Shown: positions 2,214 through 60,553 of the stretch, piece by piece
Layout: the number at the start of each line of letters is the position of its first letter
How positions within the stretch are numbered: the first letter of the stretch is position 1
From: Candidatus Aminicenans sakinawicola JGI OTU-1
GTDB taxonomy: Bacteria; Acidobacteriota; Aminicenantia; Aminicenantales; Aminicenantaceae
Reading direction: 5' to 3'
DNA length: 64,000 nt
Assembly: GCA_000493965.1 (NCBI GenBank)
Contig: AWNV01000007.1
Coordinates: forward strand, 23,351 to 87,350
The notes under the pieces: model-generated
Seen by the model: only the letters and a program-made list of their open reading frames with translations
What the model was told of the DNA's origin: nothing
The model's database searches: none
Program-made: the position numbers and the translations under genes

Positions 2214-3332
2214 ATGAAAAACATAATTCAGTTATTTGAAGCTAAAGTGAGTGACGCTAGAAATTTTGACCAGATGATTGGATTCTTATCGTGGATACCT
2301 TATCTGCACGAGCATAGATATTTTCATATACAATACTTGTACTTTAAGGGCGATATTTATAAATATTTTGTAGAGTTATGCGACTATAAAAGAAATTTAA
2401 AGTTATTAAATGCGGATATAGGTGGATTCAGATTTGAATTTACTAAAAATAGTAGTTCATATAGCTGTGCTTTTTTTATCAAAGAGACTCAGGTTGAGAA
2501 TTTATTTTCTTTAAACTCTATCACTTATCCGTTTATATGGAATACGTTAATTGAAAGGATTGTAAGGAGACGATATCCAGATTTGGTTCTCCTATATTGG
2601 AAACAAAGCGAGCTTAAAGATGCATTATTTTTGTTAGAACAGAGATTAATCAGAAAATATGATTTAGTGGTCAAAGAATTATCAATTAAGGAGAAAAGAG
2701 AGAGTAAATGGGAACGAGAATATTATCCTGTGTATGATTCCGATAGAAAATGGACTAGTAAATCATTAAAACAAGTTTTTGATGAAGCTACAGAAAGAGG
2801 ACAGTGGTTTAAGAAGGTAAGATTTTATTTTTTTAGTAAAGATGAGGAGTCGAAGGTTGTACCAATGGCTAGTTGTACTATTACAAAGTATGGTCACATT
2901 TACTTCAATCATTTGTATCTTGATATCACTTCTAATTTGTTGGCTGACTTAGAAAGTTTCCATAGAAAAAGAATACATCTGTTTCAGAACAAAGGTCTTA
3001 AAGAGAGAAATTATGTTCCTTCGTCACCCTTAAGTATTGAATATGATATTGACATTTTTAAAGACAAGGAAAATCTGAGTGCCTTCTCAACAATACTAAG
3101 GAAGTATCCAAACTCCACAAAGGCTGTATTTCATACTAATCCTTATTTTCATGTCAGTGTAGCAGATTATAAGGACGGTTCTTCCTTTGATATTTGGGTT
3201 CTAAGTTTAAATAGAATTTTAATAATTCCTCAGATTAAAACTTCTGTTGAGGGATTGGAGAGGCTTGTATCTTATATTTTTGATAAATTTGAAGAAGGGC
3301 AAATAAAAGAGTATCAATTAGATGACAAATAA
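2214..3332 (+). CDS. Hypothetical protein (372 aa), partner of downstream nuclease-like gene
   Basis: Long ORF with no family recognised; co-oriented and tightly linked to 3348..4415. Confidence 0.8.
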   Translation: MKNIIQLFEAKVSDARNFDQMIGFLSWIPYLHEHRYFHIQYLYFKGDIYKYFVELCDYKRNLKLLNADIGGFRFEFTKNSSSYSCAFFIKETQVENLFSLNSITYPFIWNTLIERIVRRRYPDLVLLYWKQSELKDALFLLEQRLIRKYDLVVKELSIKEKRESKWEREYYPVYDSDRKWTSKSLKQVFDEATERGQWFKKVRFYFFSKDEESKVVPMASCTITKYGHIYFNHLYLDITSNLLADLESFHRKRIHLFQNKGLKERNYVPSSPLSIEYDIDIFKDKENLSAFSTILRKYPNSTKAVFHTNPYFHVSVADYKDGSSFDIWVLSLNRILIIPQIKTSVEGLERLVSYIFDKFEEGQIKEYQLDDK

Positions 3333-35161: not shown

Positions 35162-37540
35162 ATGAAAAGAAGGCGGTTCATTTTCTTTCTGCTTCCTTTC
35201 CTACTATACTCTTTTCTTCTCGGGATGGTTTTTCTTTTTATTGGTCAGATAGGTGAATTTTCTATTAAAAACCATTCCTTTCGTCCGAGTGCTTTTCCTG
35301 TAATATTACTTTGCCTTCTTTTTTTTCTCCTTCTCCTCGGAATCTGGATGCTCTATTCAAAGATAATATCTAAGATCTTCCTCGTCGATTATAATGAAGT
35401 TCTTGCAAAGGATTTCCTGAGTTATATCCCTGTTGTCTTTTTTCTCTTTCTTCCTTTTGCAAATACTAATTACTTGTCGTCGGAGGACCTCCTGAAACGC
35501 TGTAAACTTCTCATCATAGCAGTCATTTTTTCTTTTCTCTACTTGAAAATAGCTCACATCTATCGACTGTTAAAGGAGAAACCGTCATTGTTTAAGAATT
35601 GGGCAGAGCGGTTTTCATCGATATCACTCAAAAGAAAGTTAGCACTTCTTTTCATTGCTGCTGTTGTTCTTTACAATGCAGGAGCAGCGTTGATGGTTTC
35701 CGAAGGGGCTGCTTTTTCAGGAGATGAACCTCACTATCTTCTTATTTCCCACAGTCTTACTGCGGACGGCGATTTCGACCTTGCAAATAATTATTCCAAT
35801 AGAGACTATACAAAATTTTTACTGAAACGGGTCAGAATCAAATCACATGTCGCTCCGGGCACAGAGGGCCGATATTCTTTTCATTCACCCGGAACATCTC
35901 TTGTTATTCTTCCCTTCTGTTATTGTGGGTCTTTATTCGGTGGAAAGCTTCTGGTCATTATTGTGCGTTTCGGCATGAGTATCTTCGGAGCCCTGCTGGG
36001 GCTTCAGATTTTTCTTTATGCCCGCCAGGAGTGGGAAAATGAGAAGCTTGCATTTGCCCTCTGGTTTTTATACGCTTTTTCATCACCTGTATTTTTTTAT
36101 TCTATCCACATCTACCCGGAAATCATAATTGCTCTTTTTTCTCTTACCGTCTTTCGGATTTTTCGTTTCTCAGACTCTTTCTCAAAGTTTTCGCTGCTGT
36201 TTTGTGGTTTTCTTCTCTCAACATTTATCTGGTTTCATACACAGAAATACATATTCATAATGGTGCCTTTGTTTATTTACGGGCTCTGGGTTCTGATAAA
36301 AAAACACAGGATAGGATGGAATCTTATATATTTTCTTGTTTTTCCATTTGGACTTACTATATTCTATTTTATCTTTCAATACAGCCTGTACGGCTCTTTT
36401 TCCCTCTCTGCAGTATCCCCAGGCGGAGCTTTGTCGGCCCCGGAATCCCTTGCCTATTTAAAGGCTTTAATCCTGGATATTCCTTTCCATTACAGATGGG
36501 AAAGCCTTGCCGGCTATTTTTTTGACCAGAGAGATGGACTTCTACTCTATGCACCTATCTATTTTTTCTCCTTTCTGGGAATGATAGAAATGGCAAAAAG
36601 AAAATCCAGAGATTTTATCCTTCTACTTTTTCTTACAGTTCCTTATGTGATTAACTATGCTTTCCTGACTCAGAGAACCGGATATGCCCCTCAAGCCAGG
36701 CCGTTAGTTTCTGTTTCCTGGGCACTTGCGATTTTTGTTGGCTTTTTCCTTGCCTATAATACAAAAAAGATATTTTCCACTTTTTTTTCCTGTGCTGTCT
36801 TTTTAAGCTGCCTCGCAGTTTTTCTCCTGTTGAAAAATCCTCTGGCACTATATCAGCTTACAACTAGGGGAGAGACAGAACGGGCTGGAAAGTTATTTCT
36901 TTTATTGAGTAATCTTCACTTTTCTCTTCCCAAGTTTCTGCCTTCATACTTGAAGATAGATAATTCCAAATGGATTCCAAATTACGTCTGGGTAGGGGCT
37001 GTTCTCCTGTTTGCAGCCGCGTATCTGGTTGTAAAAAGACGCAGGGTTTTCTCCAAATTTTCCTTCCATGTTGTTTTCTCGTTTATCGGCGTAACCATTT
37101 TTTTCATCTGGTTTGTTCTTTATCCAAGAACAATCATCAGTCATCCCGAAAAGGCAGCCTTCACTTCCGGGGAGAAGATAAATTTTTATTCTATAGGGCG
37201 AGTGGCCAGGATGATAGAACCCGGGAAATTTCATTTGCCGGAAGATGATAGAGCTTATATTTTCAGTTTCACATCCTGGCGCAGGATAGAAAAAATCCGG
37301 CTCGATTTTGGCTCTCTAAAAGAGGACTATTATTTAAAAATAAAATATTTTGATTCAGAGGTTTTTCAAGGGTATACGAAAAAAGAAATAAAGACTCTTT
37401 ATTTTTCTCCTTCTCCATCTTATCGCCTAAAAAGATCGAACATGTATCGAATCAGTATCTACCTGGAAAAAAAGCCGGGACCTGTGACCTATGAGGACCC
37501 TTATGTTTTTTCTATCTTACCTAGCAGCACAGACTCTTAG
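35162..37540 (+). CDS. GT-C-fold-like polytopic membrane protein, paralog 1
   Basis: FSGDEPHYLLISHSL..DGDFDLANNY; DQRDGLLLYAP; many TM helices. Confidence 0.75.
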   Translation: MKRRRFIFFLLPFLLYSFLLGMVFLFIGQIGEFSIKNHSFRPSAFPVILLCLLFFLLLLGIWMLYSKIISKIFLVDYNEVLAKDFLSYIPVVFFLFLPFANTNYLSSEDLLKRCKLLIIAVIFSFLYLKIAHIYRLLKEKPSLFKNWAERFSSISLKRKLALLFIAAVVLYNAGAALMVSEGAAFSGDEPHYLLISHSLTADGDFDLANNYSNRDYTKFLLKRVRIKSHVAPGTEGRYSFHSPGTSLVILPFCYCGSLFGGKLLVIIVRFGMSIFGALLGLQIFLYARQEWENEKLAFALWFLYAFSSPVFFYSIHIYPEIIIALFSLTVFRIFRFSDSFSKFSLLFCGFLLSTFIWFHTQKYIFIMVPLFIYGLWVLIKKHRIGWNLIYFLVFPFGLTIFYFIFQYSLYGSFSLSAVSPGGALSAPESLAYLKALILDIPFHYRWESLAGYFFDQRDGLLLYAPIYFFSFLGMIEMAKRKSRDFILLLFLTVPYVINYAFLTQRTGYAPQARPLVSVSWALAIFVGFFLAYNTKKIFSTFFSCAVFLSCLAVFLLLKNPLALYQLTTRGETERAGKLFLLLSNLHFSLPKFLPSYLKIDNSKWIPNYVWVGAVLLFAAAYLVVKRRRVFSKFSFHVVFSFIGVTIFFIWFVLYPRTIISHPEKAAFTSGEKINFYSIGRVARMIEPGKFHLPEDDRAYIFSFTSWRRIEKIRLDFGSLKEDYYLKIKYFDSEVFQGYTKKEIKTLYFSPSPSYRLKRSNMYRISIYLEKKPGPVTYEDPYVFSILPSSTDS

Positions 37541-37586: not shown

Positions 37587-39965
37587 ATGAAAAAATCCCA
37601 AGGGTATCTTTCATTAAGCTTATTCTTATTACTTTCCATTGCTATTGCTTTATACTTATCTCTCTATTTCCAGTCATCTTCTTTTACAATTGTCAATCAT
37701 TCCTATGTTTTCTCGCCTTTGCTCTTTGTGATTCTTATGGCAGGGGCGTTTTCCATACTGGTTTTAATCCGGCTTTCATTGAAACGTTTTGATAAAAAAT
37801 ATTTCAATATAGATCAATCTTCCCATGGCATAGGAAATCTTCTTCCTTATCTTCCTCTTTGCTTTTTCTTTCTTGCCCCCATTCTTCTTGAATATTATCT
37901 GAATAAGAATGACCTGAAAGTTCGATTGAATCTTTTGGCTTTCTCTTTGCTTTGCTGTTTTGTCTATTTGATACTGGTTCGATCGAATCGATATTTGATA
38001 GTCAAATATTTTCTTGAGAAGACAGTAAAAAAATTTAGCGGTTTATCCATCAAAAAAAGGCTTTTAGTGCTTTTTTGCCTGGCTTTTGTCATTTACAACG
38101 GCTGTACTTTTATCCTTGTATCAAAAGGAATTTCTTTTTCCGGAGATGAACCTTACTATCTCCTGACAACCCACAGCCTGCTTAAAGATAAAGATATTAA
38201 TGTTGCCAACAATTATGCTAACCGCGATTATTACTCTTTTTATTCCAAGGAAGAAATTCCACGCTTCAGATTAGGGATGTATGCACGGGCTGGCAGAAAA
38301 GGTGGGGAATATATATATCCCATTAATTTGCCCGGGGTTTCATTCCTGATGCTTCCGTTTTACTGGTTAAGCCAGTTTTTTAGTGGAAAGGTTCTTACGT
38401 TTATATTGAAAGGAAGCCTCTCTATATGGGCAGCTTTGCTGGGTGTACAGCTCTATCTTCTCTCAAAAGAACTGTGGCAGAAGGAAAAGGTTTCTCTTAT
38501 TCTTTGGTTCTTCTATTCCTTTTCTTCCCCAGTGCTTTTTTATGCAATTCATCTCTATCCTGAAATTCCTATTGCTCTTTTCTCGATTATCATTTACCGC
38601 AAAATCCGTTCAGAAAAGCATCTTTCCATTTTCAACTATTTTTTTCTTGGCTTTCTCCTGTCATCGTTTTTCTGGTTTGGCTTGAAGTACAACATGATAT
38701 TCTGGCCTCTTCTTATTGTGTCTGTGTATTTTCTTTTAAAAAACCATAAAGCCAGGCTGAAAATCCTCTGTTTTCTGGCCTTCCCTCTGTTGTCCCTGGC
38801 TCTTTTTTATTTATATCTGTACGAGATTTACGGCAGTTTTTATCCTTTTGCTATCTACGAGGGTGTTATGACCCCTGAAAAGATGCATGCATTCAAGCAG
38901 ACAGCCATGAATGTTCCGATATCGATGAGGATTGACACCCTATTCGACTATTTCCTTGATCAGAGAGATGGGATTCTCCTTTATGCCCCGTTTTATTTTT
39001 TCTTATTTCTCGGGTTAGTTGAATCCTTCCGCAGGGCGAAAAAGGACTTATTTATCCTGCTTTTTATCACACTGCCTTTTATCCTGAGCTACGCCTTTTT
39101 CACACATCGGCAGGGGTATTGTCCTCAGGGACGGATATTGGCCTCGATCTCCTGGGTTGGAGCTGTTTTTATCGGCTATTTTATCTTTCATAATAAGAGA
39201 AAAATTTATTCTTTCATTTTCTGGGTTTTTTGCCTAATAAGTCTTGGCACTGTTGTCATTCTCCTCGGGCACCCGGACTTTCTTTACCAGCCCACGACTC
39301 ACGAGTTTACTTCCAGGCCCGGAGGGATGTTTGCCTTCCTCAGTAATATCAATATTTTCCTTCCTAATTTTCTTCCATCTTTCATTAAGGTTAAAAACAC
39401 AGGATATTTACCAAATTATTTATGGGTCCTGGCTGTTATTGCCTTTGTTATAGTTTATGTTTTTATCAAAAGGAAAATTCACCTTAATTCTTACTTCCAT
39501 TTTTCTTTTTCGATTGTTCTGCTTGCCGTTTTTTTCTTTCTCTGGGTCCTTTACCCTCGACCTGTTCTTTATCCCCACCGCACTTTTCATTATTCAGTGC
39601 TGGAGTCTCTGGGTTTTTACTTTTTTCCAATGGGGAAAGGAGTAGTGGCAAATGATAGGGGAGAATTATACCTTCACAGGGAGGGTGCCTATAGAATCCT
39701 TTTCACTTCCAGGAGAAGGCTGGAAAAGGTCAAGCTGGTATTTGGTTCAGAGAGTGGCGGCTATGATGTCAAAATGTCTTGTTTTGATATCTCCTTTTTT
39801 AATGAAAAAACAACTTATGAGAAGAAAGAAATAACGCTGGAACTTCCTGCATACTATCCGTTTAAAAAACTCTATCTTTATGAGGTCAATCTTAACCTGA
39901 AAAAGCTCTCTTCTGAATCAATGCTCAAGACTCCTTACTTTTTCAAGCTTTTCCCCAGTAGATAA
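37587..39965 (+). CDS. GT-C-fold-like polytopic membrane protein, paralog 2
   Basis: FSGDEPYYLLTTHSL..DKDINVANNY; DQRDGILLYAP; same length as paralog 1 (792 aa). Confidence 0.75.
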   Translation: MKKSQGYLSLSLFLLLSIAIALYLSLYFQSSSFTIVNHSYVFSPLLFVILMAGAFSILVLIRLSLKRFDKKYFNIDQSSHGIGNLLPYLPLCFFFLAPILLEYYLNKNDLKVRLNLLAFSLLCCFVYLILVRSNRYLIVKYFLEKTVKKFSGLSIKKRLLVLFCLAFVIYNGCTFILVSKGISFSGDEPYYLLTTHSLLKDKDINVANNYANRDYYSFYSKEEIPRFRLGMYARAGRKGGEYIYPINLPGVSFLMLPFYWLSQFFSGKVLTFILKGSLSIWAALLGVQLYLLSKELWQKEKVSLILWFFYSFSSPVLFYAIHLYPEIPIALFSIIIYRKIRSEKHLSIFNYFFLGFLLSSFFWFGLKYNMIFWPLLIVSVYFLLKNHKARLKILCFLAFPLLSLALFYLYLYEIYGSFYPFAIYEGVMTPEKMHAFKQTAMNVPISMRIDTLFDYFLDQRDGILLYAPFYFFLFLGLVESFRRAKKDLFILLFITLPFILSYAFFTHRQGYCPQGRILASISWVGAVFIGYFIFHNKRKIYSFIFWVFCLISLGTVVILLGHPDFLYQPTTHEFTSRPGGMFAFLSNINIFLPNFLPSFIKVKNTGYLPNYLWVLAVIAFVIVYVFIKRKIHLNSYFHFSFSIVLLAVFFFLWVLYPRPVLYPHRTFHYSVLESLGFYFFPMGKGVVANDRGELYLHREGAYRILFTSRRRLEKVKLVFGSESGGYDVKMSCFDISFFNEKTTYEKKEITLELPAYYPFKKLYLYEVNLNLKKLSSESMLKTPYFFKLFPSR

Positions 39966-40002
39966 TGGGGATAATACGGTGGTCCTCATTTTCCCAGCCC
40001 GC

Positions 40003-40030
40003 TTGACAACATGAAATAAAATTCTATAAT
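40003..40030 (+). promoter_or_regulatory. Sigma70 consensus promoter of the asnA leader
   Basis: TTGACA(40003-40008)-16 nt-TATAAT(40025-40030); predicted +1 about 40037. Confidence 0.75.
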
Positions 40031-40036
40031 TGTTTC

Positions 40037-40141
40037 ATGCTTAACCGCAATGAACTTTGTAGTGTTGAAATAAGCACTCTTTTAATCAATAAAAACCATA
40101 ATAATAATTGGGCGGTTTCCTCCGCCCAAAAGTCCATTTAA
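40037..40141 (+). CDS. Asn-rich leader peptide (34 aa), probably leaderless
   Basis: MLNRNELCSVEISTLLINKNHNNNWAVSSAQKSI*; 7 Asn; ATG at the predicted TSS; directly upstream of asnA. Confidence 0.6.
   Translation: MLNRNELCSVEISTLLINKNHNNNWAVSSAQKSI
40108..40129 (+). promoter_or_regulatory. GC-rich hairpin in the asnA leader
   Basis: TTGGGCGG-TTTCCT-CCGCCCAA, a perfect 8-bp stem; no U-tract on the + strand. Confidence 0.6.
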
Positions 40142-40181
40142 TCCCCACTTCAATTTCTAATAAAAATATTAATGGAGAAAA

Positions 40182-41222
40182 ATGATGAAGAAGAATTGCA
40201 TAATTCCAAAAAATTACCAGCCTCTTCTGGATATTCAGGAAACAGAGAAAGCGATAAAGATAATTAAAGACTTTTTTCAGGTGAGCTTAGCAGAGGCATT
40301 AGATTTGAGGCGTGTCACAGCTCCTTTGTTTGTTAAAGCAGGGACAGGAATAAATGATGACCTTAACGGTGTGGAAAGGCCTATTTCTTTCCATATAAAA
40401 AACATAAATAACTCAAAGGCTGAAATCGTACAGTCATTGGCTAAATGGAAAAGGCTAACCCTTGCCAGTTTAAATATCAATATGGGCAAAGGTATATATA
40501 CGGATATGAATGCCATCCGACCAGATGAAATCCTTGACAATTTACATTCTCTTTATGTTGACCAGTGGGACTGGGAAAGAGTGATCTCAAAAGAAGAAAG
40601 AAATTTGAATTTTTTAAAAAACATTGTGAGAAAGACATACAATGTATTGAAAAAGACAGAATATTTTGTATGTAAGAGCTATCCCAAAATCAAACCTGTT
40701 CTCCCTGATAATATTTTATTTATTCATTCAAAGGAGCTGGAAAAAAGATATCCGAAAATGTCCCCAGAAAAAAGAGAAGATGCCATATGTCATGAATTTG
40801 GAGCAGTTTTTATCATTGGAATCGGTGCGCCTCTAAAAAACGGCAAACCTCATGATGGCAGAGCACCTGACTATGATGATTGGACAACCCCTACAGAAGA
40901 GGGGCCGGGTCTCAATGGAGATATAATTGTCTGGTATCCGGCTCTAGAAAAGGCCTTTGAAATATCTTCAATGGGGATTCGGGTAGATGAACAAACATTG
41001 GAAAAACAGCTTGAAATGACCGGAACAACTGAAAGAAGAAAATTATTTTTCCATAAAAAATTACTGAAAGGAGAATTGCCTCTTTCCATTGGCGGTGGTA
41101 TTGGACAATCAAGGCTCTGTATGTTTTTTCTGAGAAAAGCTCACATCGGAGAGATCCAGGTGAGCATATGGAAAGAAGAGATAATAGAAGAATGCCAGAA
41201 GAATAATATTTTTCTCTTATAG
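40182..41222 (+). CDS. asnA: Aspartate--ammonia ligase (asparagine synthetase A)
   Basis: GINDDLNG.E, VQSLAKWKR, HSLYVDQWDWE, HDGRAPDYDDW and SIGGGIGQSRL motifs. Confidence 0.96.
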   Translation: MMKKNCIIPKNYQPLLDIQETEKAIKIIKDFFQVSLAEALDLRRVTAPLFVKAGTGINDDLNGVERPISFHIKNINNSKAEIVQSLAKWKRLTLASLNINMGKGIYTDMNAIRPDEILDNLHSLYVDQWDWERVISKEERNLNFLKNIVRKTYNVLKKTEYFVCKSYPKIKPVLPDNILFIHSKELEKRYPKMSPEKREDAICHEFGAVFIIGIGAPLKNGKPHDGRAPDYDDWTTPTEEGPGLNGDIIVWYPALEKAFEISSMGIRVDEQTLEKQLEMTGTTERRKLFFHKKLLKGELPLSIGGGIGQSRLCMFFLRKAHIGEIQVSIWKEEIIEECQKNNIFLL

Positions 41223-50646: not shown

Positions 50647-50731
50647 TGCGGAAGGTGGGACTCGAACCCACACGGCTTTTAAGGCCATAAACTCCTGAGG
50701 CTTACGCGTCTACCAATTCCGCCACTTCCGC
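50647..50731 (-). tRNA. tRNA-Leu(CAG)
   Basis: GCGGAAG acceptor stem, TGGCGGAATTGGTAGAC D-arm, TAAGC-CTCAGGA-GTTTA anticodon arm, long variable arm, GGTTCGAGTCC T-loop; CCA not encoded. Confidence 0.96.
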
Positions 50732-59917: not shown

Positions 59918-59971
59918 TTGACAGATGGTATTCTCTAAGTTATACTCTGGTATGAATCTACCATACCATAC
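59918..59971 (+). promoter_or_regulatory. TA promoter with probable antitoxin operator repeats
   Basis: TTGACA(59918)-17 nt-TATACT(59941); GGTAT/ATACC half-sites at 59927, 59949, 59963 and nearby. Confidence 0.7.
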
Positions 59972-59983
59972 TAAGGAGGAAAT

Positions 59984-60238
59984 ATGAGCAGATCTGTTAA
60001 ATTCGCAATAAGTATTCCTGATAAGGAATTTAAAGGATTGGAGGCTTTCAGAAAGAGAAAGGGTGTAAGTAGAAGTAAACTTATCCTCGAAGCTATTAAG
60101 TTCTGGAGGGAAGCCAGAGAAAAGGAAAAACTTGTAAAGATTTATGAGGAAGGGTATAAAAGGCTCCCGGAGAATCTTACAAATATAGAGGCGTGGGAAA
60201 AGGCTTCTCTAAATGTTTTTTCTCAAGAGGAATGGTAA
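59984..60238 (+). CDS. Ribbon-helix-helix (CopG-type) antitoxin
   Basis: KFAISIPD...SRSKLILEAI; RBS AAGGAGG; abuts the toxin gene. Confidence 0.85.
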   Translation: MSRSVKFAISIPDKEFKGLEAFRKRKGVSRSKLILEAIKFWREAREKEKLVKIYEEGYKRLPENLTNIEAWEKASLNVFSQEEW

Positions 60239-60553
60239 ATGCGAAGAGGCGAAGTGTGGTGGGCAGATTTACCCTTGCCCCTCGGTCGTCGGCCAGTTGT
60301 ACTCCTTTCCCGTGATGAGGCTTACGCTGTAAGAAACGCTGTAACTGTAGCAGAAGTGACCTCAACTATTAGAAGTATTCCTGTAGAGGCAAATCTCGGT
60401 CCTGGAGATGGGTTGCCGAAAGAGTGTGTTGTAAATTTAGATACCATTGTGACTATACGGAAGGAATTATTGATTGAAAGAATTAGCATCCTTCGGAATG
60501 AGAAGATCGAGCAAATTAACGCTGCCATAAAATTCGCTCTATCCATCCCATAA
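60239..60553 (+). CDS. mazF: PemK/MazF-family endoribonuclease toxin
   Basis: RRGEVWWADL...RRPVVLLS...T.AEVTST...VNLD.I.T. Confidence 0.9.
   Translation: MRRGEVWWADLPLPLGRRPVVLLSRDEAYAVRNAVTVAEVTSTIRSIPVEANLGPGDGLPKECVVNLDTIVTIRKELLIERISILRNEKIEQINAAIKFALSIP

Follow-up and report, generated by a model that had tools for sequence, protein, structure and literature searches.

An asparagine-codon leader upstream of asnA in Candidatus Aminicenantes: a candidate ribosome-mediated attenuator with a single conserved hairpin

Runs of cognate codons in leader peptides are a hallmark of attenuation, as in trpL, hisL, pheL, thrL and leuL. The gene asnA, which encodes aspartate-ammonia ligase, is known to be controlled by the activator AsnC in E. 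coli and by asparagine (Asn) T-box leaders in Firmicutes. The subject of the present analysis is a short leader open reading frame (ORF) rich in Asn codons, located upstream of asnA in a stretch of 64,000 nucleotides (nt) of Candidatus Aminicenans sakinawicola JGI OTU-1 (contig AWNV01000007.1, positions 23,351 to 87,350 of the forward strand); this whole stretch is called the window below. Comparison of related loci indicates that this is a real and strongly conserved regulatory leader, far from chance, and it probably acts in cis, attenuating asnA through the ribosome according to how much charged tRNA-Asn is available.

Several described systems resemble parts of this arrangement. In E. coli pyrBI, the leader senses uridine triphosphate (UTP) via polymerase pausing and possesses a true U-tract terminator, and a slow ribosome leads to termination. 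In tnaC and speFL, a free ligand makes the ribosome stall on or close to the stop codon, where it masks a Rho utilisation (rut) site. Attenuators of the classical type that employ an upstream ORF (uORF) include ilvB1 in M. tuberculosis (PMC13236596) and ilvB-II in Corynebacterium (PMC10272879), and lineage-specific uORF attenuators are still being reported as new (PMC10272879; PMC13236596). In the mycobacterial leader Ms5788A, the cysteine codon tract pairs with the Shine-Dalgarno (SD) region within a long stable duplex (Canestrari et al., 10.1101/834739).

The features of the locus, in positions of the window, are as follows:

40003 to 40008, plus strand: -35 hexamer TTGACA, one half of a promoter matching the consensus at 12 of 12 positions
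40025 to 40030, plus strand: -10 hexamer TATAAT, found by the consensus scan; the pattern TAnAnT is kept in relatives
40037 to 40141, plus strand: leader-peptide ORF, predicted to be leaderless, 34 codons and a stop (MLNRNELCSVEISTLLINKNHNNNWAVSSAQKSI); with an open orthologous ORF at 16 of 17 loci
40088 to 40108, plus strand: Asn-rich segment AAT AAA AAC CAT AAT AAT AAT (NKNHNNN), marked by an in-frame excess of AAY and an invariant last Asn
40107 to 40130, plus strand: conserved hairpin with the 5′ arm TTGGGCGG (40108 to 40115), the loop (40116 to 40121) and the 3′ arm CCGCCCAA (40122 to 40129), supported by RNAalifold, pairing counts and the covariance model R1
40139 to 40141, plus strand: stop codon TAA of the leader ORF, three codons past the position usual in relatives
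40130 to 40170, plus strand: C-rich, G-poor spacer, recognised by composition, whose C block TCCCCAC (40142 to 40148) and pyrimidine motif ATTTCT (40153 to 40158) can pair with the SD
40174 to 40177, plus strand: SD of asnA, GGAG (GGAGG in most relatives), from alignments
40182 to 41222, plus strand: asnA, the presumed regulated gene (PF03590, TIGR00669)

A preliminary description of the locus had given coordinates for the promoter, the ATG, the ORF, the Asn stretch, the hairpin and a complementarity near the SD, and all of them were confirmed in the sequence. The promoter that it had called consensus, TTGACA and TATAAT separated by 16 nt, scores 12/12 against the sigma-70 consensus and was the sole match of this quality in a consensus scan of the 64-kb window. 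Six nt separate TATAAT and the ATG at 40037, the A being the seventh nucleotide past the -10 box. With the ATG as the predicted +1, an SD for the leader ORF would be impossible. The leader peptide contains NKNHNNN followed by W, and the whole asnA leader of the window is 145 nt long. The earlier assignment of asnA also holds, the product matching PF03590 with E = 3.6e-106 and the TIGR00669 equivalog with 406 bits against a cut-off of 293. Its closest AsnA relatives are 74–82% identical, and some of them are named Candidatus Aminicenantes.

Loci of asnA were gathered from genomes and metagenomes and via exact-protein look-ups. The comparison set comprised 17 distinct Aminicenantes-type leaders, the window counted in, and some alignments and folds (spacer composition, stalled-ribosome folding and conservation of TTGAC) took in 14 leaders. 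The layout of promoter, ATG, ORF and hairpin is common to all 17 distinct loci. The flanking genes vary (catalase, accA, sulfatase, TrkA, peptidase M14, TonB-dependent receptor, asd-lysC downstream) and there are at least 12 different gene neighbourhoods around asnA, which indicates that the leader travels with asnA. The geometry shared by the 17 loci is TTGAC(A), 17–19 nt, TAnAnT, exactly 6 nt and ATG; all 14 aligned relatives have TTGAC, and the locus L186, added later, reads TGGACA. The spacing of 6 nt from the -10 box and the ATG start codon itself are found in 17 of 17. As judged from the sequences, such an invariant geometry fits a leaderless mRNA with +1 at the A of the ATG. The covariance model R1, which describes the Asn run and the hairpin (72 positions), was searched against approximately 394 kb, the whole window and 45 non-Aminicenantes asnA loci included. 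It matched only the 17 training leaders, all of them before Aminicenantes-type asnA.

The leader peptide comprises 26–38 codons across the loci, and its frame is open in 16 of the 17 leaders, as against about 18% of base-shuffled versions. The distances from the ATG to the stem codon are 57, 69, 72, 78, 81 and 90 nt, all multiples of three (16 of 17). In the 30 nt before the hairpin, AAY triplets occur 72 times in frame versus 1 and 10 times in the other frames, and AAT and AAC are swapped synonymously among leaders. The last ten codons of relatives include two to six Asn codons, which are concentrated in the last eight. Non-Asn residues in these eight codons are mostly one base from AAU (His, Tyr, Lys, Ile and Thr), which looks like turnover within the Asn run. 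The invariant residues of the peptide are Met1 and the last Asn, which touches the hairpin. The stop codon directly follows the stem (CAA-TAG/TAA) in 13 of 17 leaders.

Conservation of the Asn run in frame had been set as a check beforehand, and it was borne out by the excess of in-frame AAY, the interchange of AAT and AAC and the lengths in multiples of three. The possibility that the run merely reflects AT-rich AAT repeats without conservation of frame is rejected because the frame is kept, the AAY triplets stand in frame, AAT and AAC interchange and the last Asn is invariant. A short leader ORF and enrichment of cognate codons, the properties of the broad class of leader-peptide attenuators, are both found here at the level of the sequence. 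Bypass of the leader stop by frameshifting was also considered and rejected; past the Asn run, relatives do not agree on where the +1 and -1 frames terminate.

The same data bear on an explanation in which the uORF constitutively enhances translation or serves as a reinitiation “antenna”, the Asn codons being a by-product of A-rich sequence. The leader is indeed AT-rich, the SD-pairing pyrimidine blocks lie near its stop, and the idea of reinitiation from leader to gene is taken from published work (PMC4833913). However, the distance from stop to start is about 45 nt, whereas the reported reinitiation peaks lie at 10–15 nt (PMC4833913). Selection on the Asn codons is indicated by the strict in-frame position of AAY, by the synonymous use of AAC and by the invariance of the last Asn, and a leader from another bacterial group, considered below, couples an Asn run with the same gene. 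It is very unlikely that the uORF acts in this way.

The hairpin is the second element that carries the argument. In the window, its stem consists of 8 base pairs (bp), six of them G-C, is present in the minimum-free-energy and centroid folds alike, and opens with the final base of the last Asn codon. Relatives have one extra A-U pair at the stem base, and the helix measures 8–10 bp. RNAalifold gave this hairpin as the sole consensus helix of the whole leader, and 95.3% of cells are paired over 17 sequences, compared with 38–58% in slid controls. Three stem pairs are altered on both sides, one of them being CG in 7, UA in 6 and UG in 4 sequences, and G-U variants occur at three other stem pairs. 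With these compensatory and G-U changes, the hairpin withstood the conservation check. The G-U variants keep the RNA pairing and break the DNA palindrome, and therefore the hairpin is a feature of the RNA. Another helix near the 5′ end, between purine-rich codons 3–5 and pyrimidine-rich codons 7–9, is paired in only 65% of cells and is not robust.

The residues encoded by the stem follow its pairing. The Ala/Val codon in the 5′ arm always ends in G, as the pairing demands; Ala/Val in this arm covaries with Ala/Thr on the other arm, and a replacement of Trp by Arg (UGG to CGG) is accompanied by a compensating change. Because of this dependence, the “conservation” of the C-terminal peptide is, to judge from the alignment, a shadow of the stem. 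This is of importance for the possibility that the ORF encodes a small trans-acting protein, an idea favoured by the fact that 16 of 17 loci keep the ORF. Against it, Met1 and the last Asn are the only invariant residues, the N-terminal two thirds of the peptide are poorly conserved (mean column identity 44%), the conserved C-terminal residues track the covarying stem, and the element is always linked to asnA. A protein product of this kind is hardly to be expected.

It might be supposed that the hairpin alone is the functional unit, either a binding site for a protein or another factor or a small structured RNA switch, and that the ORF is incidental. The stem is more conserved than pairing requires, GGG...CCC being nearly invariant, and the flanks AAUU and AAUA are kept too, as would suit such a role. 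The loop, however, is not conserved, and a single 10-bp helix has no ligand pocket. There is no Rfam family for the element, and no regulator gene, asnC-like genes included, is conserved beside asnA in these loci. Conservation of the frame, the ATG and the stop would also be left unexplained. An independent role of the hairpin thus seems very improbable.

Further, the hairpin could belong to the other strand or to the DNA, as a minus-strand intrinsic terminator (the hairpin followed by TTATTATTAT) or as a palindromic operator. The terminator scan does call a terminator-like site on the minus strand at 40129–40108 with the tail TTATTATTAT. Yet nothing on the minus strand converges on this site, and the upstream neighbours vary in identity and orientation among relatives. 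The G-U and U-G variants break the dyad symmetry and correspond to A-C mismatches in the minus-strand RNA, and the evidence for the ORF would again be unexplained. Such a feature appears extremely unlikely.

The spacer between the hairpin and the SD is 36–52 nt long and contains 27% C and 5% G (14 relatives). In the window, it has 12 C versus 2 G in 45 nt, compared with averages of 6.5 C and 7.1 G in 29 other upstream regions of the window, and its excess of C over G is the largest among the 29 upstream regions. C-rich and G-poor RNA, as expected of control of the Rho type, is found beside the leader stop codon, and this composition is conserved. The spacers carry the C block and a UUCC motif, and UUCC is paired with GGAG in 82% of cells. 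The preliminary description had pointed to TCCATT at 40133–40138 as complementary to AATGGA at 40171–40176. The complementarity exists in the window, but it is not conserved as such; in relatives, the predicted partners of the SD are other pyrimidine blocks in the spacer. The predicted probability that the SD core is unpaired is approximately 0.15, versus 0.23 with shuffled spacers (Wilcoxon p = 0.03, the sequences being related).

These figures are in line with an explanation that retains the sensor and makes the output purely translational: the pyrimidine spacer would pair with the SD, and the position of the ribosome on the leader ORF would free the SD. The low accessibility of the SD core and the conserved UUCC:GGAG pairing speak for it, and the mycobacterial leaderless poly-Cys small ORFs (sORFs) provide a precedent (10.1101/834739). 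In the mycobacterial case, however, the codon tract itself pairs with the SD, while in the present leader AAUAAU lacks complementarity to the SD region (the Asn tract being AAUAAUAAU and the SD region AAUGGAGG). Partition-function folds of 14 leaders were computed with the ribosome footprint forced single-stranded at chosen codons. The mean unpaired probability of the region from the SD to the AUG was 0.41 in the free leader, 0.42, 0.41 and 0.40 with the ribosome stalled at the last, second-last and third-last Asn codon, respectively, and 0.44 at the stop. Masking by the footprint at the Asn codons thus leaves the predicted accessibility of the SD unchanged. Moreover, a ribosome at the stop would open the spacer, so that plentiful Asn would raise AsnA output, a response of the wrong sign. 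A purely translational output is regarded as unlikely.

Outside the Aminicenantes, an Asn-rich leader before the same gene was found in the locus L005 (positions 2750–3000 of the locus; metagenome-assembled genome, DATDAG010000524.1, Anaerolineales). An SD-led uORF encoding MSIIFFANNNNNNNVLCEDVGRSVSDLTM precedes asnA and contains seven consecutive Asn codons, and a hairpin abuts the last of them. The strand GUUGGGCG is a candidate antiterminator, being complementary to the 5′ half of a 15-bp terminator; the terminator is followed by the U-tract UUUUUAUUUU, 30 nt ahead of the SD of asnA. Judged by its sequence, this is a classical-looking attenuator design applied to Asn and to the same gene, separate from the Aminicenantes leader. 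Since the Asn run of L005 stands before the same gene, it supports the role of the Aminicenantes Asn run as a sensor. No description of the L005 attenuator was found in the literature. In total, 137 non-Aminicenantes asnA loci yielded two Asn-rich uORFs on the sense strand and two on the control strand, with no enrichment, and among those surveyed only L005 is convincing on its own.

Two other loci may be mentioned beside L005. In L090 (about 2760–2995, upstream of an asnA 65% identical), a leader ORF encodes MTIICFTNLPKYLNYHPLIFGRSLQG, whose N-terminus is similar to the one in L005; this leader has a U-tract terminator but no Asn run, and it is possibly related to the L005 attenuator and either decayed or tuned in another way. 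In L098 (about 2370–2430, upstream of a 65%-identical asnA), a uORF encodes MNNNLIFACNGQNRINNN; at the rate seen on the control strand, such a richness in Asn could arise by chance.

Searches of databases placed the Aminicenantes leader in no known family. Rfam models at the gathering score found only tRNA in the whole window, and at E <= 10 the region 39900–40300 gave chance matches only (RAGATH-9, 17.6 bits versus 75 required). No T-box or leader family was matched in the window at the gathering score or in 39900–40300 at E <= 10. Neither Rfam 15 nor the literature search returned a described Asn leader peptide or asnA attenuator, and the earlier statement that no Asn leader peptide is known was thus upheld. 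The terminator scan detected no plus-strand terminator-like sites between 40037 and 40182. Throughout the window, sites combining a hairpin with a U-tract never exceeded the shuffled counts, and hairpins at gene ends had no common tail. Canonical terminators not being enriched in the window, factor-dependent termination is plausible here, and this genome may rely mainly on it.

The interpretation of the leader as a sensor of Asn-tRNA supply is well supported by the comparative evidence, and we infer that the leader responds to Asn. The following course of events may be proposed. The strong promoter would make the A of the ATG the first transcribed base. Under a shortage of Asn-tRNA, the ribosome would wait on the last Asn codons; its mRNA channel, about 12–15 nt ahead of the P site, would then hold the 5′ arm, and the hairpin would stay open. 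Queued ribosomes would cover the whole leaderless 5′ part, and about three of them would suffice to bury it, because the mRNA is predicted to be leaderless and the ATG is about 72 nt from the hairpin. When Asn is plentiful, the ribosome would pass through and leave at the stop, and the hairpin would refold on the naked leader. The folded hairpin or naked leader would result in low expression of asnA, and the held-open state in high expression.

If the sensor is right, three outputs can be considered. Ranked first is premature termination or pausing, brought about either by Rho on the C-rich leader or by the hairpin in the absence of a U-tract, which is a reasonable possibility, though somewhat short of an even chance. 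Loading of Rho on the C-rich leader would fit the composition and the lack of intrinsic terminators; shielding from Rho would need covering of part of the uORF and of the 5′ end. Control of translation via the SD paired with the spacer pyrimidines would be a rather unlikely output. An effect on mRNA stability, with stalled ribosomes protecting the 5′ end or the hairpin directing cleavage, would be an unlikely one.

Several observations weigh against the attenuator as proposed. RNAalifold gave a single conserved helix, so there is no antiterminator/terminator pair, and the 10 nt past the stem contain 2–5 U in the 17 sequences, which is no U-tract. The preliminary description had remarked that the ORF runs through the hairpin without a U-tract and that the mechanism is unclear, and its remark is borne out by the lack of a U-tract and of a second helix. 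Once freed, the 3′ arm finds no conserved pairing partner in the leader. Its best duplexes, at +115 to +127 in asnA, involve G-rich codons of a conserved protein motif and were set aside as a coding by-product. Switchable sequestration of the SD was likewise rejected, since a stalled ribosome leaves the SD accessibility unchanged in the constrained folds. Among the leaders, L163 and L184 retain just N-I-N ahead of the hairpin, and in L081 the distance from the ATG is 74 nt, not 72, and the frame is broken. The ATG frame of L081 (2854–2950) ends after 16 codons, either through an assembly error in a homopolymer run or because the leader is naturally broken. Were the hairpin to act on the polymerase, slow ribosomes at the earlier Asn codons would presumably favour its folding, which is the wrong sign, unless the last three codons dominate stalling. 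Finally, a ribosome on the Asn codons would reach only the hairpin loop and leave the C-rich spacer unmasked, which argues against masking as in tnaC.

It is conceivable, though doubtful, that the leader represents both the first Asn-sensing leader peptide and a new effector design, in which a leaderless ORF and one ribosome-gated hairpin operate without an alternative helix or an intrinsic terminator. By one candidate route, the ribosome queue would bury the 5′ end and gate the access of Rho or RNase. By the other, the folded hairpin would be the recognition signal for a termination or cleavage factor.

Two loci of the comparison set have further peculiarities. In L186 (1201–3438), asnA and its leader are followed by asd and aspartate kinase in the same direction, and on account of these downstream genes the Asn leader may control an aspartate-family operon. 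In L189 (1501–3261, protein P0001), a 586-amino-acid (aa) ORF has two AsnA (PF03590) matches and adjoins a phage-type integrase gene, which suggests an internally duplicated or fused asnA.

Elsewhere in the window, the ORF at 59984–60238 (84 aa, no Pfam match) occupies the antitoxin position behind an 11/12 sigma-70 promoter (window 59918–60553). A 104-aa PemK/MazF toxin (PF02452) is encoded at 60239–60553, its ATG directly after the upstream stop (TAA-ATG). By its sequence features, the gene pair at 59984–60553 is a type II toxin-antitoxin pair. Tandem paralogues at 35162–37540 and 37587–39965 encode multi-pass membrane proteins of 792 aa each with no Pfam match. The second, the only one scanned against NCBIfam, weakly matches the LA_3751/LA_3752 putative glycosyltransferase family. 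Both adjoin a lipopolysaccharide/O-antigen gene cluster (Wzy_C, GT9, GT1, GT2). A tRNA gene at 50647–50731 (minus strand) adjoins a baeRF_family10 gene (PF18854; 50919–52064), belonging to a bacterial family resembling archaeo-eukaryotic release factors.

Attenuation by leader peptides is a textbook mechanism known for few amino acids, and Asn would be a new addition. Aminicenantes are common in sediments, and the leader would show this uncultured phylum regulating a biosynthetic gene by leader-peptide attenuation. The architecture has neither the second helix nor the U-tract that classical attenuators need, and it is nevertheless strongly conserved. For this reason, the output step could reveal how the position of a ribosome is read out in bacteria apparently without canonical terminators. 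The element is also a compact and portable candidate sensor of Asn-tRNA charging.

Compared with the classical attenuators of Proteobacteria (trpL, hisL, pheL, thrL, leuL, ilvL), the asnA leader likewise places a short ORF enriched in cognate codons before a biosynthesis gene. Its regulatory codons lie at the 5′ base of the hairpin, as in the 1:2 helix of trp, and its stop is placed such that a terminating ribosome would cover the 3′ arm. Unlike these attenuators, it is built on Asn, has a predicted leaderless start and an ORF that runs through the whole hairpin, and, unlike the trp type, it lacks mutually exclusive antiterminator and terminator helices and a U-tract terminator. With the mycobacterial poly-Cys sORFs it shares the cognate codons near the 3′ end and the lack of an intrinsic terminator, and probably also the leaderless start. 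It differs in having a local hairpin 45 nt upstream of the SD, in the absence of pairing between the tract and the SD, and in a predicted SD accessibility independent of ribosome position. The mycobacterial Cys-type switch is thus not reproduced, because the accessibility of the SD is unchanged and nothing in the leader pairs with the 3′ arm once it is freed.

As in pyrBI, the leader ORF would be translated through a hairpin, whose formation a close-following ribosome would block. The logic of pyrBI, in which a slow ribosome causes termination, is however the opposite of what asnA needs, and pyrBI senses UTP and not an amino acid. The C-rich, G-poor RNA directly past the short ORF, a possible Rho loading site, recalls tnaC and speFL, as does the lack of an intrinsic terminator. 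In contrast to these, the hungry codons of the asnA leader are about 24 nt upstream of the stop, and a ribosome stalled there would not cover the spacer.

The leader would serve the same purpose as AsnC and the Asn T-box, namely the production of AsnA when Asn or charged tRNA-Asn is low. The leader of 145 nt is too short for a T-box, with no T-box match at E <= 10, and, unlike the E. coli case, no asnC-like neighbour is conserved at these asnA loci. The closest parallel in gene and amino acid is L005, where a run of Asn codons before asnA likewise has a hairpin abutting its last codon; the L005 leader differs in being SD-led, in its unrelated peptide and in its strong U-tract terminator with a candidate antiterminator strand. 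Relative to the systems described, what is new in the Aminicenantes leader, as read from its sequence, is the amino acid, Asn, the predicted leaderless start and the single hairpin without a terminator.

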